From contig CAZCJN010000006.1 of assembly GCA_964498865.1 (NCBI GenBank), forward strand, positions 1 through 34,340: a DNA stretch of 34,340 nucleotides, written 5' to 3'. Source of the DNA: an uncultured Bacteroidia bacterium. GTDB lineage: Bacteria > Bacteroidota > Bacteroidia > Palsa-948. The notes under the pieces were generated by a model. That model saw nothing but the letters and a program-made list of their open reading frames with translations, did not search any database and had not been told where the DNA came from. Shown piece after piece: positions 12,203-31,768 of this stretch (position 1 is the first letter of the stretch; each line of letters opens with the position of its first letter). A program made the translations under genes and the position numbers.

Positions 12203-12231
12203 AATCTATTTTTTATAATTCAACGATTATT

Positions 12232-14595: not shown

Positions 14596-14648
14596 TGGCA
14601 AAGTTTGCCGTATTTATTGATATGTTTTTGTAAAAAAAAAATATTTAT

Positions 14649-16124: not shown

Positions 16125-16179
16125 TAAGCCATAAGCTCTATTTGGCGATATTTGCACAATTAAATTTGCTTTGTTTAAC

Positions 16180-17517
16180 ATGATTTTTAAAAAATATTTT
16201 GCCAATACACATACTAGGTCAAAAAAGGCAATAAAAAATATTGCCAGCGCATTTGTAATAAAAGGTGTCAGCATTGCGATTAATCTGGCACTAGTTCCAC
16301 TTACAATAAGTTATTTAAATCCTACCAAATATGGTATTTGGCTTACTATTAGCTCAATTTTAGGATGGGTTGATTTTTTTGACATTGGACTTGGTCATGG
16401 ATTAAGAAATAAGTTAGCTGAATCAGTGGCTGAGGGAAATATGAAAAAAGCAAAAGCATATGTGAGTACGGCATATATATCGGTATCTATACTTTGTGCT
16501 TTTCTTTTCGGGATATTTTTAATTATAAATGAATTCATTGATTGGAATGCAGTGTTGAATGTTCCGGAGAATATGGATGAAGACATTAAAACAATTTCAT
16601 TTATTGTGTTTTTTATGTTCTCTATGAGATTTATACTTCAACTGATAAATAGTATATTTTTAGGATACCAGGAATCTGCAAAGGTTTCTTTTAATGTTGC
16701 ACTAGGCAACCTATTAGTTTTAATTGGTATTTTTTTAGTAACGCATTTTTCGCATTCCTCTTTGTTGTATGTTGCATTTTTGATTTCTGTAGTACCTGTG
16801 CTTGTTTTACTTGGAGTTAACATATTTTATTTTTCCACTAAGCTAAAAACGATATCTCCAAGCTTTAAAAGTTTTGATTATAATTCATTAAAAAATATAC
16901 TTCATCTTGGGGTTAAATTTTTTATTATTCAGATTAGTTTATTGATTTTATTTCAAACAAGTAATTTATTGATAAGTCGATATTTCTCTCCTGATTTGGT
17001 TACCTCTTATAATATTGCATTTAAGTATTTCGGTGTCATTACTATGGTTTTTAACATTATAATATCTCCTTACTGGTCTGCCTATACCGAAGCGTATGTT
17101 AAACAAGATTATGCATGGATGAGAAGATCACTTACGCAATTATTAAGAATATGGGGTGGGCTTTCTGTCGTGGCAGTGATCATGTTATTTGCATCTAACT
17201 TTATGTATCATTTATGGATTGGTGATAAAGTAAAAATAGATTTTTCTATTTCGTTGTTTATGATGTTCTATGTTGTACTCACATGCTTTGGAGATGTATA
17301 CATACGATTTCTGAATGGTGTAGGTAATGTACGTCCTCAGATGATCGTGAACCTTATCGGGATGGTGCTGTATATACCTATGTCTTATTTATTAGCAGTC
17401 AGATGGGGTATGGGTGTTTCTGGAATTATTTTATCAATTATCATATGCAACTCTTATGGAATTCTTATTGCACCATTTCAAGTAAGAAAAATTTTGAATA
17501 AACATTTACCGGTTTAA
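16180..17517 (+). CDS. wzx: Wzx-type oligosaccharide flippase (MOP superfamily)
   Basis: About 445 aa with roughly 12 predicted TM helices, typical polysaccharide-biosynthesis-protein composition, and a position inside the locus. The ATG at 16180 is preferred over the track's TTG at 16171. Confidence 0.75.
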   Translation: MIFKKYFANTHTRSKKAIKNIASAFVIKGVSIAINLALVPLTISYLNPTKYGIWLTISSILGWVDFFDIGLGHGLRNKLAESVAEGNMKKAKAYVSTAYISVSILCAFLFGIFLIINEFIDWNAVLNVPENMDEDIKTISFIVFFMFSMRFILQLINSIFLGYQESAKVSFNVALGNLLVLIGIFLVTHFSHSSLLYVAFLISVVPVLVLLGVNIFYFSTKLKTISPSFKSFDYNSLKNILHLGVKFFIIQISLLILFQTSNLLISRYFSPDLVTSYNIAFKYFGVITMVFNIIISPYWSAYTEAYVKQDYAWMRRSLTQLLRIWGGLSVVAVIMLFASNFMYHLWIGDKVKIDFSISLFMMFYVVLTCFGDVYIRFLNGVGNVRPQMIVNLIGMVLYIPMSYLLAVRWGMGVSGIILSIIICNSYGILIAPFQVRKILNKHLPV

Positions 17518-17537
17518 TAAATATAACTTAAGAAAAG

Positions 17538-18458
17538 ATGAACTCTCCTGATCTGTCCATTGTAATACCCACATTTAATCGTAAACAACCCTTATCTGTA
17601 TTGCTCAATCAATTTAAAAGACAAAAAATAAATGGAGTAAACTATAAAATTGTTGTTGTTGTTGACGGATCGACAGATGGTACGTTAGAGATGTTAAGCT
17701 CTGAATTTCCAGAAGTTTTTGTGGTGAAGGGAAGTGGTAATTGGTGGTTTACGAAATCAATGAATGAAGGATGTAAATACGCTGTGGAAGTTTTGAGATC
17801 CAGACTAATTCTCACTATTAATGATGATGTACAGATTCCTGAGAATTATTTGTCACAAATCATTCGTAACTATAATGAATGTGGCCCGGAAAGTATAATT
17901 GGCTCCTCGTCTTATTCAGCAACAGAGCCCAGGATGATAACTTTTTCAGGGATTAAATCGGAAAACCGCTTTAAACTTAAATACCATAAATATATTCCAT
18001 CCTATACGTATAAAAATCCTGATGACTTAAAAGGCGTTGTTCCTTCAGTTACATTACCCACACGAGGCGTTCTACTATCGGCAGAAATGATGAAAAAACT
18101 AAATTATTTAGACGAAGTTACCTTTCCTCAATACAGTTCAGATTATGATTTTGTTTTGCGTGCAGCAAAAAATGGTGCAAAAGTGTATGTTAGCTATGAT
18201 GCTTATCTTTTTGAAAACATGCAGATGACCAGTGGTGGTAATCCCCGCCTGGTAAAAAACTTTAAAAGTTACCTGCATAATATATTTTTTAATAAATACT
18301 CGACTAATTATTTCTTTAATCAAACAAATATGGTATGGAGGCATGGTATAAAATTATTGTTTCCTTATTATCTACTAGTACTAATTGCGGTTATACCATA
18401 CGTGTATATAAAATACAAATACTCTTCTTTGAATAATAAAGTAGAGGGTAAAAATTAA
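17538..18458 (+). CDS. family 2 glycosyltransferase
   Basis: GT-A N-terminus LSIVIPTFNR, VVVDGSTDGT and a DxD-like INDDV. There is a C-terminal hydrophobic helix. Confidence 0.8.
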   Translation: MNSPDLSIVIPTFNRKQPLSVLLNQFKRQKINGVNYKIVVVVDGSTDGTLEMLSSEFPEVFVVKGSGNWWFTKSMNEGCKYAVEVLRSRLILTINDDVQIPENYLSQIIRNYNECGPESIIGSSSYSATEPRMITFSGIKSENRFKLKYHKYIPSYTYKNPDDLKGVVPSVTLPTRGVLLSAEMMKKLNYLDEVTFPQYSSDYDFVLRAAKNGAKVYVSYDAYLFENMQMTSGGNPRLVKNFKSYLHNIFFNKYSTNYFFNQTNMVWRHGIKLLFPYYLLVLIAVIPYVYIKYKYSSLNNKVEGKN

Positions 18459-18462
18459 CAGC

Positions 18463-19689
18463 ATGCTGAAAAAAATAAGAGCCCTTCCCACAGAAGATAA
18501 GGTTAACTACTTTCTGTGCTTTAGCTTAATTGGTGTTAGTGGAATGCCTTATTTTTTTGGTTCAATTTACAATACCCTTATATTTTTTATGATTTCGCTG
18601 TTTATTTTTTTAAAGCGAAGCATAAGGTTTGACACGCGTTCATTAAATATTATGGGTGTATTTTTTTTAGTTGAATTATTACAGGCTGTATTTGTTTATT
18701 CCATAGCACCTGTAACATACATGGGAACTGTGTTACGTTTTATGTTTGCTTATGTAGTTGTTGCTATATGTAACAAAAAATTTATTATTTATTATGTAAA
18801 TATTCTTTATTTTCTTGCTGTCGTTAGCTTTGTTTTCTACATACCAACAGCGTTTATCCCGGGTGTTTATGATTTTTTTGTTTCTACTATTGCCCCTCTT
18901 TTTCCGGCTGCTGAATCCAGTACAGATAATCCCTTTTATGCTATTCAATCTACAATTGTGATTTTTACGCTGCATCCGACAATTCTTATGTTTCGTAATC
19001 CTGGTGCATTTTGGGAACCGGGAGCCTATGCCATTTTTTTGAACCTTGCACTGATCTTTAATATTATAATTACAGGTAAGCTAGTAAACAAAAAAAATGT
19101 TTTGTTTACAATTGCTATTATTTCTACACTCTCAACTACAGGATTTGTGGCTATGTTTATACTGATAGCATCCTTCTTTTTGGTTACCGGTGAATTATCG
19201 AAAAAAGCATTTATTTTAATAATGTTTGCACCACTTGCTATATATTTATTTTTTACGCTTGACTTCTTAGGCTCAAAAATCAGCCAGAATATGGAGTTGA
19301 AAGATGATACCACATCGCGATTTGGTAGTGCAGCAGCCGATCTTGAAGATTTTTCTACAAGTCCTTTGATAGGATGGGGTAAAGGTGAAAAACGTTTTGG
19401 AGGCAAAGAATTTACCTTTTTTACAGTAGATCAGCATCGTAACAATGGCCTTACCAATCTTCTTGCTACCTATGGTATATTTGCGTTTCTAACATTGTTA
19501 TACAATTATTTAAAAACCTTCAATGCGTTATGTTCAGAGTATTCATTTACAGGAACTTTTGCATTCTTGTGTTTTCTTATTATGATGATGATGGGATTTG
19601 GGGAATCTATTTTTCAGTACCCTTTCTTTTTTAGCATTATGTTTTTACATCTTGCGTATACTAAACATAACTCAATAACTGTACGATAA
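18463..19689 (+). CDS. wzy: O-antigen polymerase / ligase-like polytopic membrane protein
   Basis: 408 aa with about 10 or more TM helices and one larger loop (KISQNMELKDDTTSRFGSAAADLEDFSTSPLIGWGKGE). Positioned between the two GT2 genes. Wzy proteins are poorly conserved, so the call rests mostly on context and topology. Confidence 0.55.
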   Translation: MLKKIRALPTEDKVNYFLCFSLIGVSGMPYFFGSIYNTLIFFMISLFIFLKRSIRFDTRSLNIMGVFFLVELLQAVFVYSIAPVTYMGTVLRFMFAYVVVAICNKKFIIYYVNILYFLAVVSFVFYIPTAFIPGVYDFFVSTIAPLFPAAESSTDNPFYAIQSTIVIFTLHPTILMFRNPGAFWEPGAYAIFLNLALIFNIIITGKLVNKKNVLFTIAIISTLSTTGFVAMFILIASFFLVTGELSKKAFILIMFAPLAIYLFFTLDFLGSKISQNMELKDDTTSRFGSAAADLEDFSTSPLIGWGKGEKRFGGKEFTFFTVDQHRNNGLTNLLATYGIFAFLTLLYNYLKTFNALCSEYSFTGTFAFLCFLIMMMMGFGESIFQYPFFFSIMFLHLAYTKHNSITVR

Positions 19690-19738
19690 TAATTAGATAT
19701 GTTTCATATTATAAATTAATAATTTCCAGTCAATATCT

Positions 19739-20587
19739 ATGAAATATTATGTGATTACACCCGCTAAAAATGAAGAAGCGTTTATTGCTTATACACTAGA
19801 GTCGATGGTTAAGCAAACCCTCAAGCCTATAAAATGGATTATTGTAGATGATGGTTCAACTGATAAAACAAGAGAGATTATTGAAAAATATAGTAGATTG
19901 AATGACTGGATAGAAGTTCTTACTATTGAAAACAAACAAGAACAGAAATCATATGGTTCTAAAGTAATTCGCGCATTTAATGTTGGATATAAGAAAATAA
20001 AAGATTTCGATTTTGATTTCATTGTAAAATTAGATGCTGATTTAACATTCCCTGCAGATTATTTTCAAAAAATAGCTCAAGCATTTTCTGCTGATGATGC
20101 TATTGGAATTTGTGGTGGGTATATTGTAGAAAATGAGAATGATAGAAATATTAAAGCTTCCCGCTTTCCAAGAGTGGAGGGTGCAGTTAAGTCAGTACGC
20201 ATGAAATGTTTTAACGATATAGGGGGCTTTTTAGAAGAGAACGGTTGGGATGGAATAGATTTGCTGCATGCCCAATATTTAAATTGGAAAGTTGCAAACA
20301 TTCCTGTGAATGTATTACACCATCGCCCCGAAACAGCCGAGTACCGTTCGTTAAGATTTTTTTATAATAATGGCATTACTCACTATAGGCAGGCAAATGA
20401 TTTGTTCCTCACGTTTGTCAGGGCATTAGTAATGCTTAAGAAGAAGCCTTATTTTTTAGCCAGCTTCAGTTATGTGAGAGGATATTTGAATGCATTCTTT
20501 TCTCATACTCCCAAGTTAGTAGATGATGGACTTGCCAGGTTTATAAAAGGATACCATTATCAAAGATTGTTTAACTTTAAAAGATAA
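19739..20587 (+). CDS. family 2 glycosyltransferase
   Basis: YYVITPAKNEE...WIIVDDGSTDKT and VKLDADL (DxD), typical of a GT-A fold. Confidence 0.8.
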   Translation: MKYYVITPAKNEEAFIAYTLESMVKQTLKPIKWIIVDDGSTDKTREIIEKYSRLNDWIEVLTIENKQEQKSYGSKVIRAFNVGYKKIKDFDFDFIVKLDADLTFPADYFQKIAQAFSADDAIGICGGYIVENENDRNIKASRFPRVEGAVKSVRMKCFNDIGGFLEENGWDGIDLLHAQYLNWKVANIPVNVLHHRPETAEYRSLRFFYNNGITHYRQANDLFLTFVRALVMLKKKPYFLASFSYVRGYLNAFFSHTPKLVDDGLARFIKGYHYQRLFNFKR

Positions 20588-20597
20588 ATTTTTATTT

Positions 20598-21425
20598 GTG
20601 CTAAAAGTATCATTGACCCACGACGTTGATCGTACACAAAAAACGTATCAATATCTTACAGGATTTGTAAAAGGACTCCGAAAAGGTAACTTTTCCGAAG
20701 CACTGTATCATATCACGCCACAAAAAAAAGAGCCTTATTGGAATATTTATGACATAGCCAAACTGGAAGATTCTTATGGATTACGTTCTACATTTTTTAT
20801 CTTGGATGAGAGCATAAAATTCAATCCATTGAAGCCAAGCACCTTTGCATTAGCAGTAGGCAGGTATGATATGTTTGAACCCAAGATTCAGGATGCTTTG
20901 AGATATCTCGATAAGAATGGTTGGGAAATAGGTTTACATGGTTCGTTTTTGTCCTATAACAATAAAGAACTGTTAGGGAGAGAAAAGAGTAGGTTAGAAT
21001 CCATTATAGGACATCCGGTTTTAGGAACACGTCAGCACCATCTGAATATGGATGATACAACCTGGAAGATTCATGAAGAGCTTGGATTTTTATATGACTC
21101 TACCTGGGGGTCAAATGATGATATAGGTTTTGTAGGCGGAAAAATAAAACCATTCAAGCCAAACGGAACAAAATTCACAGTGTTTCCTTTGTTGCTTATG
21201 GATGTATGTTTTATGCCCATTCAAAATAAATGGGAGCGTTTTGAAAAATTATTGGATGAAGTTGAGCAAAATGATGCAATATTGGTAGTGAACTATCACC
21301 ACAGGGTATATAATGAGAAAGAATACCCGGGCTATAAAGCTTCTTATATTCGCATCATAGAATCTGCATTGAAACGAAATGCAGAAATTGCTCCATTAAT
21401 TAAATTTTATAACAAGCTTGCTTAG
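20598..21425 (+). CDS. polysaccharide deacetylase-like (CE4-related) protein
   Basis: N-terminal THDVD metal-site-like motif, LRSTFFIL strand and GWEIGLHGS His motif. The GTG start lies 10 nt after the preceding stop. The HDVD motif at residues 8-11 rules out the downstream ATGs. Confidence 0.55.
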   Translation: MLKVSLTHDVDRTQKTYQYLTGFVKGLRKGNFSEALYHITPQKKEPYWNIYDIAKLEDSYGLRSTFFILDESIKFNPLKPSTFALAVGRYDMFEPKIQDALRYLDKNGWEIGLHGSFLSYNNKELLGREKSRLESIIGHPVLGTRQHHLNMDDTTWKIHEELGFLYDSTWGSNDDIGFVGGKIKPFKPNGTKFTVFPLLLMDVCFMPIQNKWERFEKLLDEVEQNDAILVVNYHHRVYNEKEYPGYKASYIRIIESALKRNAEIAPLIKFYNKLA

Positions 21426-21459
21426 CCTTGCTAATATATTTTTATACTTAAACTGATTC

Positions 21460-22533
21460 GTGAAGATACTTATAGATATAGGACATCCTGCCCACGTTCA
21501 TTATTTCAAAAACTTTATTTGGATAATGCAAAAAAAAGGGCATCAGATTACGATAACAGCCCGTGACAAAGAAGTAGCTTTTAAATTACTTGATTACTAT
21601 AAATTTACATATTTCAAAAGAGGAAAAGGGGGAAATGGATACATTGGTAAATTGTTATACATTTTGTGGGCAGATTATTTTCTTTTCAAAAAAGCGTTGG
21701 AGGTTAAGCCGGATATATTTTTAAGTTTTGGTTCTCCTTATGCTGCGCAGGTAGCATGGCTGTTGAAAAAACCACATATTGCTTTTGATGATACGGATCA
21801 CAACCCTTTTTCACATGCTATGTATGTACCATTTACAACAGCAATATTAACCCCCAAATTCTATTTAAAAGATCAGGGAAATCGTCAAATTCGTTTTGAT
21901 AGTTTTATGGAATTATGTGCGCTCCATCCGAATCAATTTATTCCTAACCTTTCTCACATACAAGATGAACCGCGTCTTCAGGGTGCTGATAAATATATTG
22001 TATTAAGATTTGTTTCATGGGGTGCTAGTCACGATATGGGTTTGAAAGGATTAACATTACAAGAAAAATATTCACTGGTTAAAGAACTATCAAAATATAT
22101 TAAAGTAGTTATCTCCTCTGAGTCGCTGCTGCCCGATGACTTACAGGAATATGCATATAGTACACATCCTGCTTTTATGCATGATCTGTTAAACGGTGCA
22201 TCATTGCTGGTAAGTGAAAGTCTTACCATGTCTGCTGAAGCTGCATTTTTAGGTACTCCTGCTCTCTGCATAAGTACTGCCCAGGCCGGTACATTAAATG
22301 AAGAAGTGAAATTGGGGTTAATCGAGCTATTTAGAACGAGCGATGGATTAATTGAGCGTGCAATTGAGCTTGTTAAGAACAGTTCATATAAGGAAACATA
22401 TAAAGAAAAATCAAAAGAGATTGTTAAAAACAAACTTGATCTTACTGCATTTATGGTTTGGTTTGTAGAAAATTTCCCCAATAGCTTTTCAATTATGAAA
22501 CAAACACCTGATTATCAAAACCGATTTAAGTAA
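21460..22533 (+). CDS. DUF354-family protein, paralog A (predicted GT-B-like fold; function unknown)
   Basis: The N-terminal signature MKILIDIGHPAHVHYFKNFI matches my memory of the DUF354 family. The GTG start is supported because it aligns residue-for-residue with the ATG start of paralog B. Confidence 0.7.
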   Translation: MKILIDIGHPAHVHYFKNFIWIMQKKGHQITITARDKEVAFKLLDYYKFTYFKRGKGGNGYIGKLLYILWADYFLFKKALEVKPDIFLSFGSPYAAQVAWLLKKPHIAFDDTDHNPFSHAMYVPFTTAILTPKFYLKDQGNRQIRFDSFMELCALHPNQFIPNLSHIQDEPRLQGADKYIVLRFVSWGASHDMGLKGLTLQEKYSLVKELSKYIKVVISSESLLPDDLQEYAYSTHPAFMHDLLNGASLLVSESLTMSAEAAFLGTPALCISTAQAGTLNEEVKLGLIELFRTSDGLIERAIELVKNSSYKETYKEKSKEIVKNKLDLTAFMVWFVENFPNSFSIMKQTPDYQNRFK

Positions 22534-22535
22534 AT

Positions 22536-23549
22536 ATGTCAGAAAAAACTACGGGCATACAGATTAATGAAAACCCCGATAAGAAAAAGTGGGATGATTT
22601 TGTATTAAACCATCCATTGGGAAATATATTTCAAACATCCTTAATATACGATGTATATAAAAAAACACCTTATAATGATGCTGGTGTAATTGCCTTAGAA
22701 GATGCTGATAAAAATATAAAGGGTATTTTGGTATATACCCTCATTTTTGAGCCTGGAATTAAAAGTCGTTTCTCAACACGTTCAATCATTAATGGCGGAC
22801 CTATTATCAGCGATAATAATAGCCAGTTCACTAAACAGATCCTTGACTATTACAACGAGAAGATTAAAAAAACAAAGGTTATATATACTGAAGTAAGAAA
22901 TCTATTTGATGTACAACTGCTGAATGAACCCTTTTTAAAATGTGGCTTTTCTCACATTGAACACATGACTATTCATAATGATCTTACTTTGCCTGTTGAG
23001 GAAATGAAAAAAGCATTACACAGGGGTAGGGCATCTAATATTAAAAGAGCGCTTAATAAAAACATGCAAATAAGGCAGCTTGTAACCAAAGATGAAATAA
23101 TGCAGGGGCATGACCTTATTGCTAAAACATATGAAAGAATTAATTTGCCATCTCCTGACCCTAACTTGTTTTTAAATACAGCTGAAATTTTAAAAGATAA
23201 ATGCCGCATTGTAGGAGCTTTTGCAGATGATAAACTTATTGGCTGCAGAGTTTATTTGATCTATAAAGAGTCAATGTATGACTGGTATGCAGCTATTGAT
23301 ATGAAGTATTCTAATTACCAGGTAGCTGATCTTATGCCATGGCATAATATGCTATGGGGAAAAGAAAATGGAATTAAAGTATATGATTTTGCCGGTGCAG
23401 GTAAACCAACTCAGGATTATTCCGTTAGAGATTATAAATTGAAGTTTGGAGGTAAGTTATTGTCTTTTGGAAGGTATTATTATGTGCATAAACCATTATT
23501 ATATAATGTGGGAAAATTAGGAATGAAAGTTTATAAGTATATAAGATAG
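22536..23549 (+). CDS. FemAB-family / double-GNAT (Acetyltransf_6-like) acyl- or aminoacyl-transferase
   Basis: 337 aa. C-terminal signature YDFAGAG...YSVRDYKLKFGGKLLSFG resembles the FemAB-family Y-x-F-K-x-x-F-G-G motif. The size fits a two-GNAT-lobe protein without the coiled-coil insertion. The start is 2 nt after the DUF354-A stop. Confidence 0.6.
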   Translation: MSEKTTGIQINENPDKKKWDDFVLNHPLGNIFQTSLIYDVYKKTPYNDAGVIALEDADKNIKGILVYTLIFEPGIKSRFSTRSIINGGPIISDNNSQFTKQILDYYNEKIKKTKVIYTEVRNLFDVQLLNEPFLKCGFSHIEHMTIHNDLTLPVEEMKKALHRGRASNIKRALNKNMQIRQLVTKDEIMQGHDLIAKTYERINLPSPDPNLFLNTAEILKDKCRIVGAFADDKLIGCRVYLIYKESMYDWYAAIDMKYSNYQVADLMPWHNMLWGKENGIKVYDFAGAGKPTQDYSVRDYKLKFGGKLLSFGRYYYVHKPLLYNVGKLGMKVYKYIR

Positions 23550-23567
23550 ATAGTTGTTAGTATCGTT

Positions 23568-24656
23568 ATGAGGATATTAATTGACATAGGCCATCCTGCT
23601 CATGTTCATTATTTCAAAAACTTTATTTGGAATATGAAAGACAAAGGGCATTTAGTTCATATTGTATCGAGAGATAAAGAAGTTGCCTTTAGTTTATTGG
23701 ATTATTATATGCTCCCTTATGTAAATAGGGGAAAAGGCAAAAAGGGCATTATAGGTAAGTTGTTTTATATTTTACAGGCTGATTTTTTTATTTTTAAGCA
23801 GGCACTTAAATTTAAACCTGATATTTTCCTTAGTGCAGGCTCCATGTATGCTGCTCATATTTCCTGGTTAATGCGGAAACCTCATGTTGCGTTAGACGAT
23901 ACGGATCATAATACTTTTCAGCATTTAATGTATGTACCCTTTACCTCTGATATTTTAACTCCTAAAGTATTTCAGAAAGATTTTGGAAAAAAACATATTC
24001 GTTTTGATGGTTTTCTTGAATTGGGTTCATTGCATCCCTCAAGATTTAAGCCTAACCCTGAAAATATTAAAGATTTATTACAAGGATCGGATAAAAACCG
24101 GTATGTTATCCTACGCTTTGTTTCCTGGGATGCCAGTCATGATATAGGTTTAAAAGGCCTATCGTTAGCTGATAAATATTTATTGGTAAAAGAGCTGTCC
24201 AAGTATGCTAAAGTTATAATTTCGTCGGAGTCTCCTCTCCCTGATGATTTAAAAAAGTATGCTTTTAAAACCCACCCTGCGTATATGCACGATGTGCTGA
24301 ATAGTGCTAGTTTGTTAGTAAGCGAAAGTTTAACCATGTCTGCAGAAGCCGCCTTTTTAGGAACACCTGCCTTGTGTATAAGCACCGCTCAAGCCGGTAC
24401 GTTGGATGAAGAAGTTAAATTAGGATTGATTGAGCTATATAGGTCGAGTGAGGGATTGGTAGATCGAGCCATCCAAATAGTAAAAGATGATTCTTATAAA
24501 AATGTTTTCAAGCTTAAATCAAGAGAAATATTAAACACCAAAGTAGATCTTTCAGGTTACATAAGTTGGTTTTTGGAAAATTATCCGGGCAGTAGAAAGA
24601 TAGCAGGTGATTCAAAATATCAATATAACAATTCAGAAAAGTTTTATAATACATAA
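23568..24656 (+). CDS. DUF354-family protein, paralog B
   Basis: MRILIDIGHPAHVHYFKNFIW... is collinear with paralog A. By hand count, 70 of the first 100 residues are identical. Confidence 0.7.
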   Translation: MRILIDIGHPAHVHYFKNFIWNMKDKGHLVHIVSRDKEVAFSLLDYYMLPYVNRGKGKKGIIGKLFYILQADFFIFKQALKFKPDIFLSAGSMYAAHISWLMRKPHVALDDTDHNTFQHLMYVPFTSDILTPKVFQKDFGKKHIRFDGFLELGSLHPSRFKPNPENIKDLLQGSDKNRYVILRFVSWDASHDIGLKGLSLADKYLLVKELSKYAKVIISSESPLPDDLKKYAFKTHPAYMHDVLNSASLLVSESLTMSAEAAFLGTPALCISTAQAGTLDEEVKLGLIELYRSSEGLVDRAIQIVKDDSYKNVFKLKSREILNTKVDLSGYISWFLENYPGSRKIAGDSKYQYNNSEKFYNT

Positions 24657-24680
24657 TATCATTATACCTTCATAATATAT

Positions 24681-25475
24681 ATGAGAGACTTTACTCTTAT
24701 TTCCTATGAACACTTGCTTACTACATTTAAGCAAAAGGGATATTCATTTTTTACGTTCGAGGAATATTTGCTGACTAAACCCGCTGGTAAAGTTGTTATT
24801 TTAAGGCATGATGTAGATGATCTTCCGGGTAATTCTTTAAACACCGCAAAGATTGAAAATAGATTGGGAATTAAAGGAGTGTATTATTTCCGAATTGTAA
24901 AACAAAGCAACCACCCTGAGATTATAAAAGCTATTGCTGCATTAGGACATGAAATAGGCTATCATTATGAAGATCTTACATTAGCATGGGGAAATACAGA
25001 GAAAGCTATTTCTAACTTTAAGAAGAACCTTGAATATTTCCGCACTTATTATCCTGTTAAAACAATATGTATGCACGGAAGCCCAATGAGTACGTGGGAT
25101 AATAAAGATGTATGGAAAAAATATTCCTATAAAGATTTTGGAATTATTGGAGAACCTTATTATGATATAGACTTTAAAGTTTTTTGTTATTTAACAGATA
25201 CCGGCAGGAGATGGAATGGAGGACAAGTGAGCGTAAGGGATAAGGTTGTTTCATCCTATAATTTTAATTTTGAGACTACATTAAACATTACAGAGAATAT
25301 ACAGAAACTGCCTGACAAGATAATGATAACAGTTCATCCACAACGTTGGTCAGATAACTGGTTCATATGGACTAAAGAATTAATCCTTCAGAATGTTAAA
25401 AATGTAGTTAAACGCCTTATAGCATCTCCTAAGGCTGGTATGACTTCATTACTTACTTATTTTAATATGGTTTGA
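24681..25475 (+). CDS. polysaccharide deacetylase-like (CE4-related) protein
   Basis: VVILRHDVDD, GIKGVYYF and GHEIGYHYE follow the same HDVD...G-H-E-I-G-x-H pattern as 20598-21425. The two are otherwise only distantly similar. Confidence 0.5.
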   Translation: MRDFTLISYEHLLTTFKQKGYSFFTFEEYLLTKPAGKVVILRHDVDDLPGNSLNTAKIENRLGIKGVYYFRIVKQSNHPEIIKAIAALGHEIGYHYEDLTLAWGNTEKAISNFKKNLEYFRTYYPVKTICMHGSPMSTWDNKDVWKKYSYKDFGIIGEPYYDIDFKVFCYLTDTGRRWNGGQVSVRDKVVSSYNFNFETTLNITENIQKLPDKIMITVHPQRWSDNWFIWTKELILQNVKNVVKRLIASPKAGMTSLLTYFNMV

Positions 25476-25524
25476 GTTATAGAATTAATTCCATTAAATA
25501 TAACTACCATAGAGTGCATTTTGA

Positions 25525-25532
25525 TATCTTTG
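25525..25532 (+). promoter_or_regulatory. possible Bacteroidota sigma-A -7 element (TAnnTTTG match: tatctttg)
   Basis: Exact match to the published Bacteroidetes -7 consensus TAnnTTTG. It lies in the only sizeable intra-locus gap (143 bp), about 87 nt upstream of the asnB-like start. I saw no well-spaced -33 TTG, so the call is weak. Confidence 0.2.
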
Positions 25533-25618
25533 CCCCCTATTTTATAAGACATAATCAAGGTATTTATACTTTTTTAACGTTATTTATTCAGTTTTTTAAA
25601 TTTATAATCTAATAATGT

Positions 25619-27445
25619 ATGTGTGGCATTGCCGGTATAGTTAATTTATCTGAACGACCCGTTACAATGGACGATATTTCCGGTATGCTTAAGACCATTA
25701 AACATCGGGGGCCGGATGATGAAGGAACTTATTTCAAAGATAATATTGGTATCGGACAAGTCAGGTTAAGTATTATAGATCTTTCATCTGCAGGACATCA
25801 ACCCATGTTTAGTAATGAAAACAGGTACAGCATTGTTTTTAATGGAGAGATATATAACTACCTGGAGTTAAAGGAAGTGTTAAAGGATAAATATAGTTTT
25901 AAAACTAAAAGTGATACTGAAGTTATATTGGCAGCTTATTCCGTTTGGGGAGAGGATTGTTTATCGAAGTTTAATGGAGATTTTTCTTTTGTTATTTACG
26001 ATGTTCAGGAAAAAGTATTTTTTGGTGCCCGTGATCGTTTTGGAGTAAAACCATTCTACTATCATCAAAATCAAACAGGATTCTATTTTGCTTCTGAAAT
26101 AAAAGCATTATTACCTAAAGTAGCGAACGTAGAGCCCAATAATAAGTCGATATTTGAATACTTGGTTTATAATCGAACCGATCAATCACATGAAACATTT
26201 TTTAAAGATATTTTTAAGTTAAAGCATGGTCATTGTTTTACTATCAAGAATGCCAAGGTAAATTTTAAACAATGGTATAACCTTCCCAACCAAGTAAAAT
26301 ATCCTACTCCTTTAACACCCAAAGAGTTTAGAGAAGAAATTAAAAAATCAGTAGCTCTTCGTTTGCGTAGTGATGTACCGGTTGGCGTTTGTTTGAGTGG
26401 AGGTATGGATTCTTCTACCTTAACCTCGGTGATGTATAATGACTTTTCAGCAAAGGAATTACAAACATTTTCGGCAATATATGAACGAGGAACCTGGGCA
26501 GATGAAAGTCCCTATGTATATGCATTTAAGGATAAGCTCAAGCACATGCATACCATCACTCCAACAGCAGATACTTTTTATAATGAGTTTATAGATTTTA
26601 TAGTTTCTCAAGGCGAACCTATCCCCGGAGTAAGTCCCTATGCACAGTATAAGGTAATGCAATTAGCTAAGGGAAATGTGGTGGTTACCTTGGACGGACA
26701 GGGGGCCGATGAAATGCTAGGTGGGTATCCATACTTGTATGGAAGCTACTTTAAAGAGTTACTTACCAACTTTAAATTTATTACTTTGTTGAAGGAGGCT
26801 ATAGGATATTATAAAAACAATCCTTCGAAAGATGCCTATACCTATTTCGTTTACTACATGCTGCCCATAAGTTTAAAAGGTTATGCAAGTAGTAAGAAAT
26901 TTGGAAGTGTAAGTACAGAGTTTTACAATCGTTATCAAAAAGAATCAACCATATCTGCAGATTTTTATAATCCGAAATCATTACATGAATTCTTTCTACA
27001 GCATTTTGAACATAAATTAGAACATTTATTGAAGTGGGATGATCTCAACTCTATGCGCTTCTCTATAGAATCAAGAGTTCCGTTTCTAGATCACAACCTG
27101 GTAGAAAAAGCTTTATCTCTTCCTGCTAATCTTACACATAAGGGCGGGGTGAGTAAATATATCTTAAGAGAGTCGGTGAAAGATATATTGCCTGAAAAAA
27201 TATACAACAGAAAAGATAAAAAGGGTTTTGAGACTCCTTCGGATGAATGGTTTAGGACAACTCGGTTTCAGAAATATATTACAGATATGTTGAATTCTGA
27301 GAAATTTAAAAATCGCGGGTATTTTAATGTACAGGATTGTAAAAACAAATATCAAAGCCACTTAGAAAAGAAAGGAAATCACTCGAAAGATATTTGGAAA
27401 TGGATAAATCTGGAAGTATGGTTCCAAAAATTTATAGATAAATAA
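25619..27445 (+). CDS. asnB: asparagine synthase (glutamine-hydrolysing) family amidotransferase
   Basis: Ntn glutaminase start MCGIAGI, then HRGPDD, NGEIYNY and ARDRFGVKPFYY. Synthetase PP-loop CLSGGMDSS. Confidence 0.9.
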   Translation: MCGIAGIVNLSERPVTMDDISGMLKTIKHRGPDDEGTYFKDNIGIGQVRLSIIDLSSAGHQPMFSNENRYSIVFNGEIYNYLELKEVLKDKYSFKTKSDTEVILAAYSVWGEDCLSKFNGDFSFVIYDVQEKVFFGARDRFGVKPFYYHQNQTGFYFASEIKALLPKVANVEPNNKSIFEYLVYNRTDQSHETFFKDIFKLKHGHCFTIKNAKVNFKQWYNLPNQVKYPTPLTPKEFREEIKKSVALRLRSDVPVGVCLSGGMDSSTLTSVMYNDFSAKELQTFSAIYERGTWADESPYVYAFKDKLKHMHTITPTADTFYNEFIDFIVSQGEPIPGVSPYAQYKVMQLAKGNVVVTLDGQGADEMLGGYPYLYGSYFKELLTNFKFITLLKEAIGYYKNNPSKDAYTYFVYYMLPISLKGYASSKKFGSVSTEFYNRYQKESTISADFYNPKSLHEFFLQHFEHKLEHLLKWDDLNSMRFSIESRVPFLDHNLVEKALSLPANLTHKGGVSKYILRESVKDILPEKIYNRKDKKGFETPSDEWFRTTRFQKYITDMLNSEKFKNRGYFNVQDCKNKYQSHLEKKGNHSKDIWKWINLEVWFQKFIDK

Positions 27446-27459: not shown

Positions 27460-28488
27460 ATGGATACCCCTTCAAATCTTACTTCACGTTTTAATTTTCT
27501 TGATTATATAAAGGGAATTTTAATTTTTTTGGTTGTTTACGGGCATATCATCCAATTTGTTGAATATAAAGATTCAGGTTTATTTTGGTTCGACCCTGTT
27601 TACAAAATCATTTACATGTTTCACATGCCTTTATTTATGGCAATTAGTGGTTTCCTTGCTTATAACTCAATTCAGAAAAAATCCTTTTATGATATTTTTA
27701 AAAGCCGCATTAAAACACTCATTGTTCCAATTGTTTTCTTTGCTGTTTTAAAGTTTACATTATCGCTGATATGGGATAGTGATTTTATATTACGACAATT
27801 GCCGGCTACGTTTATTAAAGCAATTATTGGCAATCTTTGGTTTTTGTGGGCATTATTTTACGCAACTGTAATTGTAGCGTTTATGAGAAAATACAATTTT
27901 GATAAACCGGTCTTTTTTGCTCTTGCTCTTATTGTTTTTTTGATATTGCCAGATCGTTACGATTCCTCTCTATATAAATTTACATTCTTTTATTTTTTAC
28001 TTGGTTATTTAGTAGCTCAGTATTCTATTCATATCTATTTTCAAAATAGCATCAAGCGTAATAACATTCTTCTTTTTATTAGTGTATTGTTAAGTATATT
28101 TTTTTTCTTCATTTGGAATAAGAATATGTATGTATATATCTCCGGTATGCAAATACTTAGTATGAATATTTTCACAGTATTGCTTAGATTCTTAATAGGT
28201 ATTGTATGTTCAATTGCTTTTCTATTGTTTTTTCTGAAAGTATATGAATGGCGTCCGGCACCTGGTATTATTGAGTTGGGTAAGAATAGTATTTATATAT
28301 ATATCCTGCAAGATATTGCGGTGTCCTTTTTTAAAAGAAGCACTTTTCCTGAATTCAATTCTTTATTATTTACAATTACTGTAGCACCAATAGTTGCATT
28401 GGTGGTGGTTTTTGTTAGTCTTTATATTGGAAATTTTTCTCAACGTTGGCGTTTAATGCAAGTAGCTTTCGGGCGTTTTAATCGGTAA
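27460..28488 (+). CDS. acyltransferase family 3 (AT3) membrane O-acyltransferase
   Basis: N-terminal RFNFLDYIKGILIFLVVYGH (AT3 R...D...G...H motif) and about 10 TM helices. Confidence 0.8.
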   Translation: MDTPSNLTSRFNFLDYIKGILIFLVVYGHIIQFVEYKDSGLFWFDPVYKIIYMFHMPLFMAISGFLAYNSIQKKSFYDIFKSRIKTLIVPIVFFAVLKFTLSLIWDSDFILRQLPATFIKAIIGNLWFLWALFYATVIVAFMRKYNFDKPVFFALALIVFLILPDRYDSSLYKFTFFYFLLGYLVAQYSIHIYFQNSIKRNNILLFISVLLSIFFFFIWNKNMYVYISGMQILSMNIFTVLLRFLIGIVCSIAFLLFFLKVYEWRPAPGIIELGKNSIYIYILQDIAVSFFKRSTFPEFNSLLFTITVAPIVALVVVFVSLYIGNFSQRWRLMQVAFGRFNR

Positions 28489-28514
28489 AAACATTAATTA
28501 ATATTTGATGCAAA

Positions 28515-29939
28515 ATGATTTTTAACTCGTTCATATTTTTGATTTTCTTAGGAATTGTTCTTCCAATTTTTTATTGGTTACCTACAAAGAAAAGTAAAAA
28601 CCTTTTTCTTGTCATTGCCAGCTATTTTTTTTACGGGTACTGGGATTGGCGTTTTTGTACTCTTCTTGCATTCACCACTTTTACTGATTTTTATATTGGG
28701 AAACAAATAGCAAGTTTAAGTGACGATAAAAAAAGAAAACTATGGTTGATTATCAGTTTGGTTATTAATTTGGGAATATTAGGCTTTTTTAAATACTTTA
28801 ATTTCTTTGTTGATAATATTCATGCTGTTTCTACTCAGCTTGGTTTTGGTTTAGATTTTTTGCATTTGAACATTATTCTTCCAGTAGGCTTATCCTTCTA
28901 TATCTTTCATAATCTTTCTTATATCACAGATATATATAGAAGAAAAATTCAACCCTCTGATGATATAATTGATTTTGGCCTATTTGTTACATTTTTCCCT
29001 CAATTGGTAGCGGGTCCAATTGGAAGAGCCGATGCATTATTACCTCAATTAACAAAGTTTTTAAAACCAACTAAAGAGCAAATTAAAGAAGGAATTGTAT
29101 TAATCATATATGGCCTTTTCAGAAAAGTAATGATAGGAGATACCACAGGCAGGTATGTAGATCATATTTTTGAAAATATGGGAGAGTATAAAGCTTTTGA
29201 GATAATTTGTGCACTCATTTTATTTTCTATTCAGATTTATGCTGATTTTTCAGGATATACACATATAGCAAGAGGTACTTCCAAACTTTTCGGTGTAGAA
29301 CTGATGAAAAATTTTGAACAACCGTACTTATCTAGAAATATAACAGAGTTTTGGAGGCGTTGGCATATCTCCTTATCATCTTGGTTAAGGGATTACCTAT
29401 ATATATCATTAGGAGGAAATCGTAATGGTAAATTAAGGACATATATTAATCTTTTCATTACCATGCTGCTTGGCGGTTTATGGCACGGAGCAAGTTGGAA
29501 TTTTGTGATTTGGGGTGCGTTGCATGGTCTTTATTTAGCTATTCATAAAATGATGACTAAAGATGGACCTACATTAACAAAAAATTTAAAGCGTTTTACT
29601 TTTAAAGACATAGTAAATATTCTATTTACTAATGCACTTGTCATTTTTACCTGGTTGTTTTTTAGATCAACCAGTTGGGATACTACCACGATTTTCTTTT
29701 CAAAAATCGCGAATTGGGAAACAAGTGAATATACATTTTGGTTTGCTATAGTAACATTAATTTTTGTTGTGTTAACTGTTATTATTGACTTACTTGAATA
29801 TTTAACCGGAAAGCACACCTATCTTTTGAGAATAAAACCAACGTCCGTTTTGTTAGGGCTACTTACAGGATTATTGGTTTTTACTCTTTTTTATTTATAT
29901 CAGTCTAAGCCAATGCCATTTATTTATTTTAAATTTTAA
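28515..29939 (+). CDS. MBOAT-family O-acyltransferase (AlgI/DltB-like)
   Basis: Signature FWRRWHISLSSWLRDYLYISLGGNR and the catalytic-His region GGLWHGASWNFVIWG. Polytopic membrane protein. Confidence 0.9.
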   Translation: MIFNSFIFLIFLGIVLPIFYWLPTKKSKNLFLVIASYFFYGYWDWRFCTLLAFTTFTDFYIGKQIASLSDDKKRKLWLIISLVINLGILGFFKYFNFFVDNIHAVSTQLGFGLDFLHLNIILPVGLSFYIFHNLSYITDIYRRKIQPSDDIIDFGLFVTFFPQLVAGPIGRADALLPQLTKFLKPTKEQIKEGIVLIIYGLFRKVMIGDTTGRYVDHIFENMGEYKAFEIICALILFSIQIYADFSGYTHIARGTSKLFGVELMKNFEQPYLSRNITEFWRRWHISLSSWLRDYLYISLGGNRNGKLRTYINLFITMLLGGLWHGASWNFVIWGALHGLYLAIHKMMTKDGPTLTKNLKRFTFKDIVNILFTNALVIFTWLFFRSTSWDTTTIFFSKIANWETSEYTFWFAIVTLIFVVLTVIIDLLEYLTGKHTYLLRIKPTSVLLGLLTGLLVFTLFYLYQSKPMPFIYFKF

Positions 29940-29957
29940 TACATAAATACAATTTTG

Positions 29958-30971
29958 ATGAAAAAGGTACTATCTATATTTTACTTCTGTTTAACACTTT
30001 TAGGTACAGCTATTTTATTTGAACTTATATTGCATTTTGGTGGTATTATGACTCCTATTTTAACCATTGACCCAAACAAAGGGGAACGTTATATGCCTAA
30101 TAAAATGTGCTGTTCAATTTTTAATTATGAAGGATTTGGCCTGGCAAAAACAAATTCTGCCGGCTGGTTTGGAAATGATCCTAATAGATGGGATTCTTCT
30201 GCTACTTCATTAGCGATATTGGGCAATAGTTTTATTCCTGCCCGGCAGGTATTTTACAGGCATAATTTTTTAGCAATAACAGAAGAACTCTTTCAAAATA
30301 ATAATAAAAATGTACGTTTTTACAATTTTGGAAAAGAATCAATGCCCTTGCGTGAATCATTGTATATAAAAGAAGAGATAGATGCGACCTACCACCCTGA
30401 TTATTTTATTGTTTTTATAAATGAACGAAGTTTAGGAAACGAAGGAAGGTATATTCCTTATTATGAATTAGCGGGAGATTCGTTAAAATTAAATGATAGT
30501 TTTAAATATTCTTCTTTTGTAAAAAAATATCAAAAAATTAGCCTTCTTAATCAATCATCTCTTCTTTTCTTAATATATCGAGTTAAAAATAATCTTTCTG
30601 ATTTTTGGAAAATAGTTCTTGATAAATTTTATCCGAATTATGATGAAAATATTGAAGAAGGAGTAGTCAACCGACCAGTAGATAGGGTAGATGAAGCAAT
30701 TATAAAGAAATTTGACCAAGATAGAAGAGTGATTTTTTTATTTGATTTAGATTCTTCAAAAGCACAAATGGTACAATCATATATTAGTAACTCACCTGTT
30801 ATTAATGTACACCCTGCTTTAATGAAAATGCATAAAGAAACAGGTGTAGATCCTTATTATTGGCCTATAACTAATCAAAAAGGACATTGGAATTACGAAG
30901 CACATAGAGTCATTGCCAGAGAGTTTTCAAATGAAATTAATAGTGTTATTTTTACTACAAGTAAGAAATAG
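29958..30971 (+). CDS. membrane-anchored hypothetical protein; possible DltD/SGNH-like partner of the MBOAT
   Basis: Single N-terminal TM helix. AILGNSF is a candidate SGNH block I (GDS-like) and KGHWNYEAHRVIAREF a candidate block V. It lies immediately downstream of the MBOAT, as DltD and AlgJ/X do. The call rests on weak motifs only. The ATG at 29958 is preferred over the TTG at 29955. Confidence 0.35.
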   Translation: MKKVLSIFYFCLTLLGTAILFELILHFGGIMTPILTIDPNKGERYMPNKMCCSIFNYEGFGLAKTNSAGWFGNDPNRWDSSATSLAILGNSFIPARQVFYRHNFLAITEELFQNNNKNVRFYNFGKESMPLRESLYIKEEIDATYHPDYFIVFINERSLGNEGRYIPYYELAGDSLKLNDSFKYSSFVKKYQKISLLNQSSLLFLIYRVKNNLSDFWKIVLDKFYPNYDENIEEGVVNRPVDRVDEAIIKKFDQDRRVIFLFDLDSSKAQMVQSYISNSPVINVHPALMKMHKETGVDPYYWPITNQKGHWNYEAHRVIAREFSNEINSVIFTTSKK

Positions 30972-30994
30972 AAATAACTAACTATTTAAGTTAT

Positions 30995-31768
30995 ATGGCT
31001 TCTAAGAGTATGTACAAAATACTTAAGAGTATTTATAACAAGTGTATTAGATGGATAGCTGGAAAAATAGTACATAAAAAGGTTAATTTGAATCTATCCG
31101 AAGCAATTGTTTCTTTTGCATTTGATGATGTTCCCCATTCAGGTTTTATGTATGGTTCAAATATTTATAAAAAATACGGGTTTCGTTCAACGTATTATGT
31201 CGCTCTAGGTTTTTTTGAAAAAAATAGACAAGACGGGCCGTATTATGAACCTAAGTATTTACAGCAAGCACTAGACGAGGGCAGCGAACTTGCCTCCCAT
31301 ACCTATGGTCACTTGCATTTTTCTATTTCAAATAAAAAACAAATAATCGAAGACTTGAATAAAAATCAAAAAAGAATAAACGAATTTTTTCCGGAATATA
31401 AATTTGTAAATTTTTCTTATCCATATGGTGAGCAAACAATAGCAAGCAAACGTATAATGTTGAATAGATTTAAAACTGCACGTGGGGTAAAAGGAGGTAT
31501 TAATTATGGAGTTATTGACTTGATTGATTTAAAATCACATCAATTAGGCAATCATTTTCAAATGGAAGACATTAAATTTATTATTGATGAAACAATTAGA
31601 TTAAAGGGTTGGTTGATTTTTTATACGCATGAAGTTGAAAGCAACCCAACCGCATATGGCTGTACTCCTGAAATGTTTGAATTTGCTGCTCAGTATTGCT
31701 ATCAAAAAAGGGTTTCTGTTTTAACAGTGAAAGAAGCCATAGAAACAATAGAAAAAACGACATCCTGA
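30995..31768 (+). CDS. NodB-type polysaccharide deacetylase (CE4)
   Basis: NodB motif 1 FAFDDV (TFDD-like), motif 2 SHTYGHLH (H-S/T-x-x-H), and later FSYPYG. Confidence 0.8.
   Translation: MASKSMYKILKSIYNKCIRWIAGKIVHKKVNLNLSEAIVSFAFDDVPHSGFMYGSNIYKKYGFRSTYYVALGFFEKNRQDGPYYEPKYLQQALDEGSELASHTYGHLHFSISNKKQIIEDLNKNQKRINEFFPEYKFVNFSYPYGEQTIASKRIMLNRFKTARGVKGGINYGVIDLIDLKSHQLGNHFQMEDIKFIIDETIRLKGWLIFYTHEVESNPTAYGCTPEMFEFAAQYCYQKRVSVLTVKEAIETIEKTTS

Follow-up and report, generated by a model that had tools for sequence, protein, structure and literature searches.

A run of six adjacent genes, encoding two deacetylase-like proteins (deac1 and deac2), two DUF354 proteins (DUF354a and DUF354b), a FemX-like protein and an AsnB-type amidotransferase, lies within a Wzx/Wzy-type exopolysaccharide (EPS) locus on contig CAZCJN010000006.1 of an uncultured Bacteroidia bacterium (assembly GCA_964498865.1), positions 1 to 34,340 of which constitute the window analysed here. 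The block is probably a glycan-tailoring module, operating on the cytoplasmic side during Wzx/Wzy-type repeat unit assembly, in which DUF354 and deacetylase pairs act together with a FemX-like aminoacylation step. Its predicted core, a DUF354 GT-B transferase and a divergent CE4-type N-deacetylase, occurs twice (deac1-DUF354a and DUF354b-deac2), flanking the FemX-like enzyme. A preliminary description of this DNA had read the block as one that deacetylates an amino sugar, aminoacylates the freed amine and amidates a carboxylate; that chemistry is well supported, but its supposed novelty proved wrong and the places assigned to AsnB and DUF354 need refining.

In the mechanism proposed, a priming phosphoglycosyl transferase (PGT) would load undecaprenyl phosphate, each DUF354 protein would add an N-acetyl-hexosamine-type sugar, possibly a uronic acid, and its partner deacetylase would strip the N-acetyl group to expose an amine. 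The FemX-like enzyme, by means of a catalytic lysine (K301), would then attach to one such amine an amino acid taken from aminoacyl-tRNA, and AsnB, with glutamine and ATP, would turn a carboxylate, most likely the C6 of a uronic acid, into an amide. No transmembrane (TM) segment or signal peptide was found in any of the six proteins; hence the chemistry is cytoplasmic, as the tRNA-dependent step requires. The analysis documents the genes present, the folds, the conservation of catalytic residues and of the neighbourhood, the cytoplasmic location and the gene fusions; we infer the donors and acceptors of this scheme, its sugar and amino acid, the role of DUF354 as the transferase, the order of the steps and the stage, UDP-sugar or lipid-linked, at which they occur.

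The FemX-like protein

The central gene of the block encodes a protein that passes the gathering score of the FemAB family (PF02388, 50.8 bits against a cutoff of 24) and also matches Acetyltransf_6 (PF13480, 41.5 bits, cutoff 22). Single-sequence searches of the PDB returned nothing useful for this protein or for DUF354, and marginal matches only for the two deacetylases, so that profiles were needed. The Fem family profile matched Fem-type chains only: Staphylococcus aureus FemX (1.5e-15), Weissella viridescens FemX (around 1e-11), Sbb17 (1e-5) and FemA (6e-5). An AlphaFold2 model, made with 37 relatives (pLDDT 94.7, pTM 0.91), consists of two tandem GNAT-fold domains. When compared with the PDB using Foldseek, it matched S. 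aureus FemX, W. viridescens FemX, Sbb17/Sba18 and FemA at 6e-18 to 3e-16, with TM-scores of 0.67-0.71 for FemX, FemA and Sbb17, whereas the best acetyl-CoA-dependent tandem GNATs and MprF domains reached just 1e-9 to 1e-11. Sbb17/Sba18 are aminoacyl-tRNA-dependent peptide synthases, the PDB structures of which hold the amino sugar streptothrisamine.

The active site residues follow the same pattern. In the profile alignment, RDYKLKFGG is set opposite the AFKK of S. aureus FemX, the Phe-Lys of which we take to be equivalent to F304/K305 of the W. viridescens enzyme (FemXWv). This alignment places K301 at the position of the catalytic lysine, and K301 is the sole fully invariant position among the FemX-like relatives (90 of 90). 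In FemXWv, Lys305 is the only reactive residue of the active site (PMC12945691). A basic helix, HRGRASNIKRALNK (residues 163-174), is likewise conserved, and the alignment sets it against the one in each of the two FemX proteins. The protein therefore looks like an aminoacyl-tRNA-dependent transferase rather than a plain acetyl-CoA-dependent GNAT, and aminoacyl-tRNA would be its donor. This is the assignment that the preliminary description had made, and the fold it had named as incompatible with that assignment, a plain acyl-CoA acetyltransferase, is not the one that the model resembles.

The protein might instead use acyl-CoA, or another donor that is not a tRNA, to load the deacetylated amine with an unusual acyl group, for example hydroxybutyryl or succinyl. 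The match to PF13480 would fit such an activity, as this GNAT family includes CelD-like proteins with poorly defined donors; furthermore, one locus with DUF354 and WbmS-like genes and no Fem gene (L087) has a plain GNAT gene upstream, and there is no tRNA gene near the window's own Fem gene. We consider this unlikely, given that the matches to aminoacyl-tRNA-dependent enzymes are six to eight orders of magnitude better than those to CoA-dependent tandem GNATs, that the FemX catalytic lysine is invariant and that the related protein VimA, from the Wbp/Vim pathway discussed below, decides between Ser and Gly as the amino acid to be added (PMC7468200). Gene fusions also resemble the stepwise building of peptides by FemA and FemB: tandem Fem::Fem genes are found in Paludibacter metagenome-assembled genomes (MAGs; loci L013-L015).

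These Fem::Fem fusions, of around 678 aa (L013:8954-10990 and L014:8933-10972), lie directly upstream of DUF354-deac2-PGT, and suggest that in some relatives two successive aminoacylations produce a dipeptide side chain. A peptidoglycan precursor, the acceptor of FemABX enzymes, does not suit the present gene, which is part of a Wzx/Wzy EPS locus and has relatives in Methanosarcina, Archaeoglobus and Syntrophoarchaeum. Hence the protein would be Fem-like in its working, yet not a Fem enzyme of murein synthesis.

DUF354 and its probable deacetylase partners

The genes either side of the FemX-like gene do encode paralogous DUF354 proteins, as the preliminary description had reported: DUF354a and DUF354b match PF04007 with 61 and 48 bits (cutoff 22) and are 68% identical to one another (BLASTP E = 3e-175). 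More than 2,300 relatives were detected at E <= 1e-3 in a 90%-clustered database. In all relatives with two copies these have been kept as orthologous a and b pairs, from which we argue that they have distinct roles; the neighbour of deac2 is consistently the b orthologue in loci L001, L008, L011, L007, L093 and L106.

The AlphaFold2 model of DUF354a (pLDDT 93) has a GT-B fold with two Rossmann-like halves. Foldseek ranked UDP-GlcNAc 2-epimerases (around 1e-13) slightly ahead of GT1 glycosyltransferases (around 1e-12), all with TM-scores of 0.6-0.69 that are generic for GT-B proteins. With profiles built from the sampled loci, hhalign aligned DUF354 to GT4 with a probability of 98.7 and E = 2.7e-16 over 327 columns, including the C-terminal helix that contains a Glu, where E260 is paired with the second Glu of the GT4 E-x7-E region; the alignment to Epimerase_2 had a probability of 95 and E = 4e-8. 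The catalytic residues of UDP-GlcNAc 2-epimerases (PF02350) we take to be D95, E117, E131 and H213, in the numbering of Escherichia coli WecB. In the profile-profile alignment the motifs GDTNS (D95), PEEINR (E131) and HPRT (H213) have no conserved counterpart in DUF354, being set against G-S, a non-conserved stretch and SSE, respectively; only E117 is met by an acidic residue (D110/D111). In many cassettes a genuine Epimerase_2 gene also stands beside DUF354. The identification as a 2-epimerase, which the Foldseek ranking would suggest, was therefore rejected as the primary one, and a glycosyltransferase is the leading reading for DUF354, predicted from the closer GT4 profile, the unmatched epimerase motifs and the true Epimerase_2 genes alongside. 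Of the two activities put forward in the preliminary description, GT-B-type transfer or epimerisation, the first is thus in keeping with the fold and the second is disfavoured.

Other signals are fainter. Sub-threshold matches were obtained to Pfam GT4 and GT28, to PseG and to MJ1255-type GT-B proteins, relatives are annotated by JGI as 'predicted glycosyltransferase', and the DUF354 profile found no match in the PDB. Three invariant histidines, H9, H12 and H14, follow strand 1, and D111 follows strand 4; in the model these may occupy the places where inverting GT-B enzymes have a His/Asp pair.

It is possible, if doubtful, that DUF354 is a GT-B-fold enzyme that modifies nucleotide sugars, be it an atypical epimerase or a UDP-sugar hydrolase resembling PseG, rather than a glycosyltransferase; DUF354, deacetylase, Fem and AsnB would then tailor a UDP-sugar, which the adjacent PGT would subsequently load onto the lipid carrier. 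The epimerases of UDP-GlcNAc and UDP-diNAc-glucuronate at the head of the Foldseek matches point this way, as do the weak PseG match and the frequent position of DUF354 immediately upstream of a PGT. A fusion of deac2 to a PGT, described below, resembles known fusions of PGTs with an enzyme making their UDP-sugar donor, of which Neisseria PglB is an example. The NCBIfam name of the deacetylase VimE is that of a UDP-sugar deacetylase, and the catalytic residues of glycosyltransferases are poorly conserved in DUF354 (PMC4520260). Set against these are the missing equivalents of D95, E131 and H213, the much closer GT4 profile, the cassettes that already possess a true Epimerase_2 next to DUF354, and the generic nature of the TM-scores; we continue to regard DUF354 as a probable glycosyltransferase.

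The outer members of the two pairs had been described as CE4 deacetylases. They are indeed CE4-like, cytoplasmic and tightly co-inherited with Fem, but they are remote relatives of CE4 and not canonical members, as judged from their sequences: on PF01522 (cutoff 23.1) the scores are 18.0 bits for deac1 and 14.8 bits for deac2. The NCBIfam model for VimE, named UDP-2,3-diacetamido-2,3-dideoxy-glucuronate deacetylase, matches deac1 over model positions 161-416 of 431, which is the C-terminal domain only (43 bits, E = 1.9e-11, cutoff 440), and homologues of deac1 pass both WbmS-like (PF22537) and PF01522; deac1 is hence better described as WbmS/VimE-like. Its conserved motifs are HDVD and GWEIGLHGS, with a single His in GLHGS, and it is rare, being present in six of 85 Fem-centred loci.

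By contrast to deac1, deac2 does not match the VimE model, nor any Pfam family at E <= 0.01. A 40-sequence profile (A3) nevertheless retrieved from the PDB the CE4 deacetylases 7y51/7fbw (E = 3e-5) and SpPgdA (1.4e-4), aligning RHDVD with CE4 motif 1 and GHEIGYH with motif 2, the region around the latter having the form H90-x4-H95-x-E97. The deac2 and deac1 families align with an hhalign probability of 90.8, and HDVD is invariant in both. A recent duplication was considered as the origin of the two genes and rejected, as pairwise similarity is negligible (BLASTP E = 0.027) and kinship is visible at the profile level only. We describe deac2 as a probable N-deacetylase from a CE4-like family lacking a Pfam model, which comprises 474 representative clusters at E <= 1e-30.

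Two further features of this family were observed. In the deac2 profile, residues 5-33 are matched to the extreme C-terminal strand and helix of the CE4 structures 7y51 and 7fbw, and residues 32-119 to their N-terminal motifs, which suggests a circular permutation of the CE4 fold, on a weak basis (domain i-E-value of about 10). In addition, the deac2 domain is fused to a canonical CE4 domain plus DUF3473, the architecture of the deacetylase of PEP-CTERM loci, in Methanosarcina sp. T3 (L051:7388-9088) and in protein P0291; the Methanosarcina fusion, from an archaeon that lacks murein, adjoins a second deac2 gene and a Fem-like gene.

Conservation of the cassette, AsnB and the surrounding locus

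When one genome per GTDB species was scanned by pattern, 363 relatives of the FemX-like protein were found. The best 80 of these loci belong to Bacteroidota, Ignavibacteria, Cloacimonadota, Aminicenantes, Desulfobacterota, Omnitrophota, Saccharibacteria and Archaea, the last represented by Methanosarcina sp. T3, Ca. Argoarchaeum, Ca. Syntrophoarchaeum and Archaeoglobus. Cultivated carriers include Marinifilum breve JC075 (L044), Melioribacter sp. OK-6-Me (L076), Spirosoma panaciterrae (L005) and Methanosarcina sp. T3 (L051). Neighbours within 5 kb were counted in the 50 Fem loci that have 5 kb or more of sequence to either side: DUF354 is present in 44, a deac2 homologue in 41, a priming PGT in 21 and AsnB in ten. 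The association of DUF354, FemAB-like and CE4-type genes, the conservation of which had been proposed as a check, thus extends across many bacterial phyla and Archaea. A second sample, centred on DUF354 and consisting of 40 metagenome loci of at least 9 kb, contained AsnB in 18, PGT in 17, deac2 in 12, Fem in four and deac1 in three. The orders AsnB-deac2-Fem-DUF354-(Epimerase_2)-PGT and Fem-DUF354-deac2-PGT recur, and in many related loci a PGT homologue lies directly downstream of DUF354 or deac2. Simpler close relatives, with the order PGT-Wza-Wzc-Wzx-Wzy-DUF354-deac2-AsnB-GT2-GT2-HfsH, have one DUF354 and no Fem gene (L088-L090, L094 and L095); hence the window has the appearance of a base module, DUF354-deac2-AsnB, extended by deac1-DUF354-Fem.

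Gene fusions connect the same partners. DUF354 is joined to deac2 in that order in L030, L075, L083, P0288, P0302 and P0327, and in the reverse order in P0325, whilst in P0418 (525 aa) an N-terminal deac2 domain is followed by a Bac_transf priming transferase, physically linking the deacetylase to the priming step. We regard these as independent Rosetta-stone links that put DUF354, deac2 and the primer at early steps following one another. As to the substrate of deacetylation and aminoacylation, the deac2::PGT fusion and the curated name of VimE suggest a UDP-sugar, and the DUF354::deac2 fusions and the analogy with MurG and FemX a lipid-linked intermediate. The least probable of the explanations considered is that unrelated capsule-tailoring genes have come together here as an ordinary mosaic, acting on different residues and sharing no pathway. 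Capsule loci are mosaics, and some loci have one of AsnB, DUF354 and Fem without the other two; such an assemblage is difficult to square with a co-occurrence of 82-88% across phyla, the recurrent gene orders and the independent fusions in both orders.

The AsnB protein of the block matches Asn_synthase (234.7 bits) and GATase_7 (151 bits), exceeds the cutoff of TIGR01536 (439 bits against 267) and falls below that of the XrtA/PEP-CTERM amidotransferase model TIGR03108 (360 bits against 817). Its N-terminus, MCGIAG, supplies the Cys2 nucleophile and a PP-loop, SGGMDS, is found at position 260, so by its motifs it is an intact glutamine-dependent amidotransferase. The amidation step proposed originally stands to this extent, but it is not specifically tied to aminoacylation: AsnB tracks DUF354 and not Fem, being present in 18 of the 40 DUF354-centred loci, most of which are without Fem, but near Fem in only ten of 50 loci. 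This suggests that its substrate is the sugar handled by DUF354, and not the added amino acid.

A second AsnB-like protein (14649-16124, forward strand, 491 aa) is encoded between Wzc and Wzx. It lacks the N-terminal Cys nucleophile and has a degenerate PP-loop, TAGFDS; members of a related degenerate AsnB family occur in 13 of the 85 Fem loci, often adjoining a CapK-like protein of 444 aa. The possibility that it is a paralogue of AsnB was dismissed, as the two share no pairwise similarity and the match to TIGR01536 is weak. Its role may be that of a ligase forming amides with some amine other than ammonia.

Several observations weigh against the tailoring scheme. The catalytic assignments, among them those of DUF354, deac2 and the Fem subfamily, are all drawn from homology and context. 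Both deacetylases fall under the Pfam thresholds, and deac2 is without the canonical second His of CE4 motif 2, having HEIGYHYE in place of HS/TxxH. The top structural matches of DUF354 are epimerases, and the gene often occurs without any deacetylase or Fem. In the literature searched, outside which most subscription journals lay, no function is described for DUF354 (COG1817), the sole functional comment being an analysis that predicts a glycosyltransferase with few of the catalytic residues conserved (PMC4520260). AsnB accompanies Fem in just the ten of 50 loci noted above. To supply it with a uronic acid there is no UDP-sugar dehydrogenase or Wbp gene in the 34-kb window, and a uronic-acid-forming dehydrogenase lies within 10 kb in only eight of the 85 Fem loci. 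Finally, no dedicated tRNA gene was found near the Fem gene.

A more far-reaching idea, which we rate as very unlikely, is that the cassette builds an amino-acid-capped sugar, the free alpha-amine of which would accept the sortase-like covalent attachment of secreted proteins, with DUF354 installing the anchor sugar. It is modelled on the seryl-glucuronamide of Porphyromonas gingivalis, which plays this role for type IX secretion system (T9SS) cargo. If true, the cassette would be a general device for anchoring proteins to glycans in many Bacteroidota and other phyla, possibly extending to archaeosortase-type systems in Archaea. In one Flavobacteriales MAG the syntenic locus is followed, at L001:18239-20993 on the reverse strand, by a gene whose large product combines SprB repeats with a C-terminal T9SS sorting domain (Por_Secre_tail); its position may be coincidental, though it is relevant to the anchoring idea.

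The block forms part of a single long, co-directional polysaccharide locus, spanning 10305-31768 on the forward strand of an AT-rich window of Bacteroidota-like appearance (around 33% GC; Table 1). All six open reading frames (ORFs) of the preliminary description were recovered on the forward strand with the positions it had assigned, and its account of them as nearly gapless holds, the intervals being 34, 2, 18, 24 and 143 bp in gene order. Independent pipelines called the block genes alike on contigs of no fewer than four further metagenome samples, and 20 contigs belonging to several metagenomes carry the block with a DUF354b that is identical. The entire locus is found with its order unchanged in the Flavobacteriales MAG GCA_020635855.1 (L001), and the whole is also kept in L008 and L106; the Wza-to-GT2 order is shared by L001 and L008, and the MBOAT, 338-aa protein and HfsH-like CE4 genes by all three.

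Table 1. Features of the polysaccharide locus within the 34,340 nt window
Feature	Coordinates	Strand	Length	Description
Priming phosphoglycosyl transferase (PGT, Bac_transf)	10305..11387	+		PF02397, 81 bits; start of the locus
Wza, Wzc, AsnB-like without nucleophile, Wzx, GT2, Wzy, GT2 (in this order)	11435..20587	+		Pfam and NCBIfam matches
deac1	20598..21425	+	275 aa	WbmS/VimE-like divergent CE4 N-deacetylase, cytoplasmic (predicted)
DUF354a	21460..22533	+	357 aa	GT-B fold, probable glycosyltransferase
FemX-like tandem-GNAT transferase	22536..23549	+	337 aa	Probable aminoacyl-tRNA-dependent N-aminoacyltransferase
DUF354b	23568..24656	+	362 aa	Paralogue of DUF354a
deac2	24681..25475	+	264 aa	Unclassified CE4-like family, probable N-deacetylase
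AsnB-type glutamine-dependent amidotransferase	25619..27445	+	608 aa	
AT3 acyltransferase, MBOAT, 338-aa single-TM protein, HfsH-like CE4 deacetylase	27460..31768	+		Downstream of the block

Among the genes downstream, the HfsH-like CE4 protein scores 141 bits, under the equivalog cutoff of its model, and the 338-aa single-TM protein has no family match. The priming PGT at the start of the locus is only 360 aa long and contains no strongly hydrophobic 19-residue segment (maximum Kyte-Doolittle value 1.24), an unusual trait in a PGT embedded in the membrane, so that its start codon or its topology may call for a second look. No RNA families were found in the window, and promoter and terminator scans yielded no useful signal, promoter-like sites being fewer than in shuffled sequences. 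In the final stretch of around 2.5 kb at the 3' end (31769-34340), the ORFs of both strands that do not cross the end of the window reach at most 113 aa, and there is no Rfam match at gathering thresholds; the stretch may contain a truncated gene.

Implications and comparison with known systems

If correct, the tailoring scheme would give DUF354 (COG1817) a concrete role. The analysis also delimits a previously unclassified CE4-like family of about 470 representative clusters (E <= 1e-30). The tRNA-dependent aminoacylation of surface glycans has so far been documented, genetically, only for the linking sugar of Porphyromonas and Tannerella; the cassette suggests that it is widespread, in environmental Bacteroidota, several other bacterial phyla, and methanogenic and anaerobic methanotrophic (ANME)-type Archaea. 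Free or aminoacylated amines would make polysaccharides cationic or zwitterionic, and could serve as nucleophiles for the attachment of proteins; such chemistry bears on the biofilm matrix, on recognition by phage and the immune system, and on the tethering of proteins to glycans. The DUF354/deac2/Fem cassette itself appears undescribed: no published account was found in the literature searched, most subscription journals being outside it, which makes this weak evidence. For a capsule pathway combining Fem and a deacetylase, the work on the Vim proteins, described below, was the sole relevant match there.

The order of operations proposed has precedents in two pathways with other products. In the synthesis of mycothiol (MshA, MshB and MshC) and bacillithiol (BshA, BshB and BshC), a GT-B enzyme transfers GlcNAc, the product is N-deacetylated and an amino acid is placed on the freed amine; in lipid II synthesis, a primer (MraY), a GT-B enzyme (MurG) and FemX act in turn on a polyprenyl-linked intermediate. 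However, the thiol pathways employ LmbE-type deacetylases and ATP-dependent ligases for the amino acid step, and the products of these systems are small thiols or murein and not EPS.

The FemX-like protein shares the tandem-GNAT fold, the conserved catalytic lysine and the basic helix with FemX, FemA, FemB and Orf11/Sbb17, of which Orf11 transfers glycine to the amino sugar streptothrisamine, a precedent for the tRNA-dependent aminoacylation of amino sugars (PMC12945691). It differs in its low identity to these enzymes (12-16%), in the absence of a FemA-type coiled-coil insertion, and in belonging to an EPS locus and having relatives in Archaea, which lack murein. For AsnB, the closest parallels are the glutamine-dependent paralogues found in other glycan loci, namely WbpS of Pseudomonas aeruginosa O6, WbqG of E. 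coli O121 and PGN_1234, the last two of which are required for uronamide formation (PMC7468200); unlike these, the window has no dehydrogenase that would form a uronic acid.

The EPS loci associated with PEP-CTERM proteins and exosortase also combine a FemAB-like protein (TIGR03019), a CE4 deacetylase (TIGR03006) and an AsnB-type amidotransferase (TIGR03108), and these models are the best or second-best NCBIfam matches of the window proteins. The scores are well under the family cutoffs, however, no exosortase was seen in the window, and DUF354 is outside the set described for these loci, which are likewise known from their genes.

The nearest counterpart is the Wbp/Vim pathway of P. gingivalis and Tannerella forsythia, which produces the T9SS linking sugar, 2-N-seryl-3-N-acetylglucuronamide (PMC7468200, PMC13086638). 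Here VimE (PGN_1055), a CE4 protein, removes the 2-N-acetyl group of di-N-acetylglucuronic acid, the AsnB-type WbpS (PGN_1234) forms the uronamide, and VimF, a GT-B glycosyltransferase from the same operon, has been put forward as the enzyme that transfers the completed sugar (PMC7468200, PMC13086638). VimA (PGN_1056), which matches the FemAB-like model TIGR03019, installs Ser or Gly, and exchanging the T. forsythia vimA changed Ser to Gly (PMC7468200). Clusters of vimA-like, deacetylase, AsnB and glycosyltransferase genes in PEP-CTERM EPS loci have already been noted (PMC7468200, PMC13086638). The claim that no characterised system has such logic consequently fails, as enzyme classes and predicted chemistry coincide: CE4-type N-deacetylation, a tandem GNAT related to FemAB/TIGR03019, AsnB-type amidation and an adjacent GT-B protein, again in Bacteroidota, with deac1 being a detectable homologue of the VimE catalytic domain.

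The differences are nonetheless extensive. WbpA, WbpB, WbpE and WbpD, which supply UDP-GlcNAc3NAcA, are absent from the 34-kb window, though they could be elsewhere in the genome; the glycosyltransferase is DUF354 and not the GT4 protein VimF; the main deacetylase partner, deac2, is from another, unclassified CE4-like family; and the DUF354 and deacetylase pair is duplicated. NCBIfam scores lie far under the equivalog cutoffs (43 bits against 440 for the deacetylase, 47 against 260 for the FemX-like protein, with VimA thus compared through its family model TIGR03019 only, and 360 against 817 for AsnB). Furthermore, the window module is embedded in a Wza/Wzc/Wzx/Wzy EPS locus, whereas the vim genes are scattered amongst those for lipopolysaccharide, and a link to protein anchoring, known for the Vim system, would be speculative for the window. 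These low scores, the lack of Wbp genes, the presence of DUF354 as glycosyltransferase and the absence of a Pfam model for deac2 argue that the window does not encode an orthologous Vim system; by analogy, the block would be a non-orthologous functional counterpart of VimF, VimE, VimA and WbpS. Hence the logic of deacetylation, aminoacylation and amidation is one already known from Wbp/Vim, whilst the parts of the cassette are different and widespread in bacteria and archaea.

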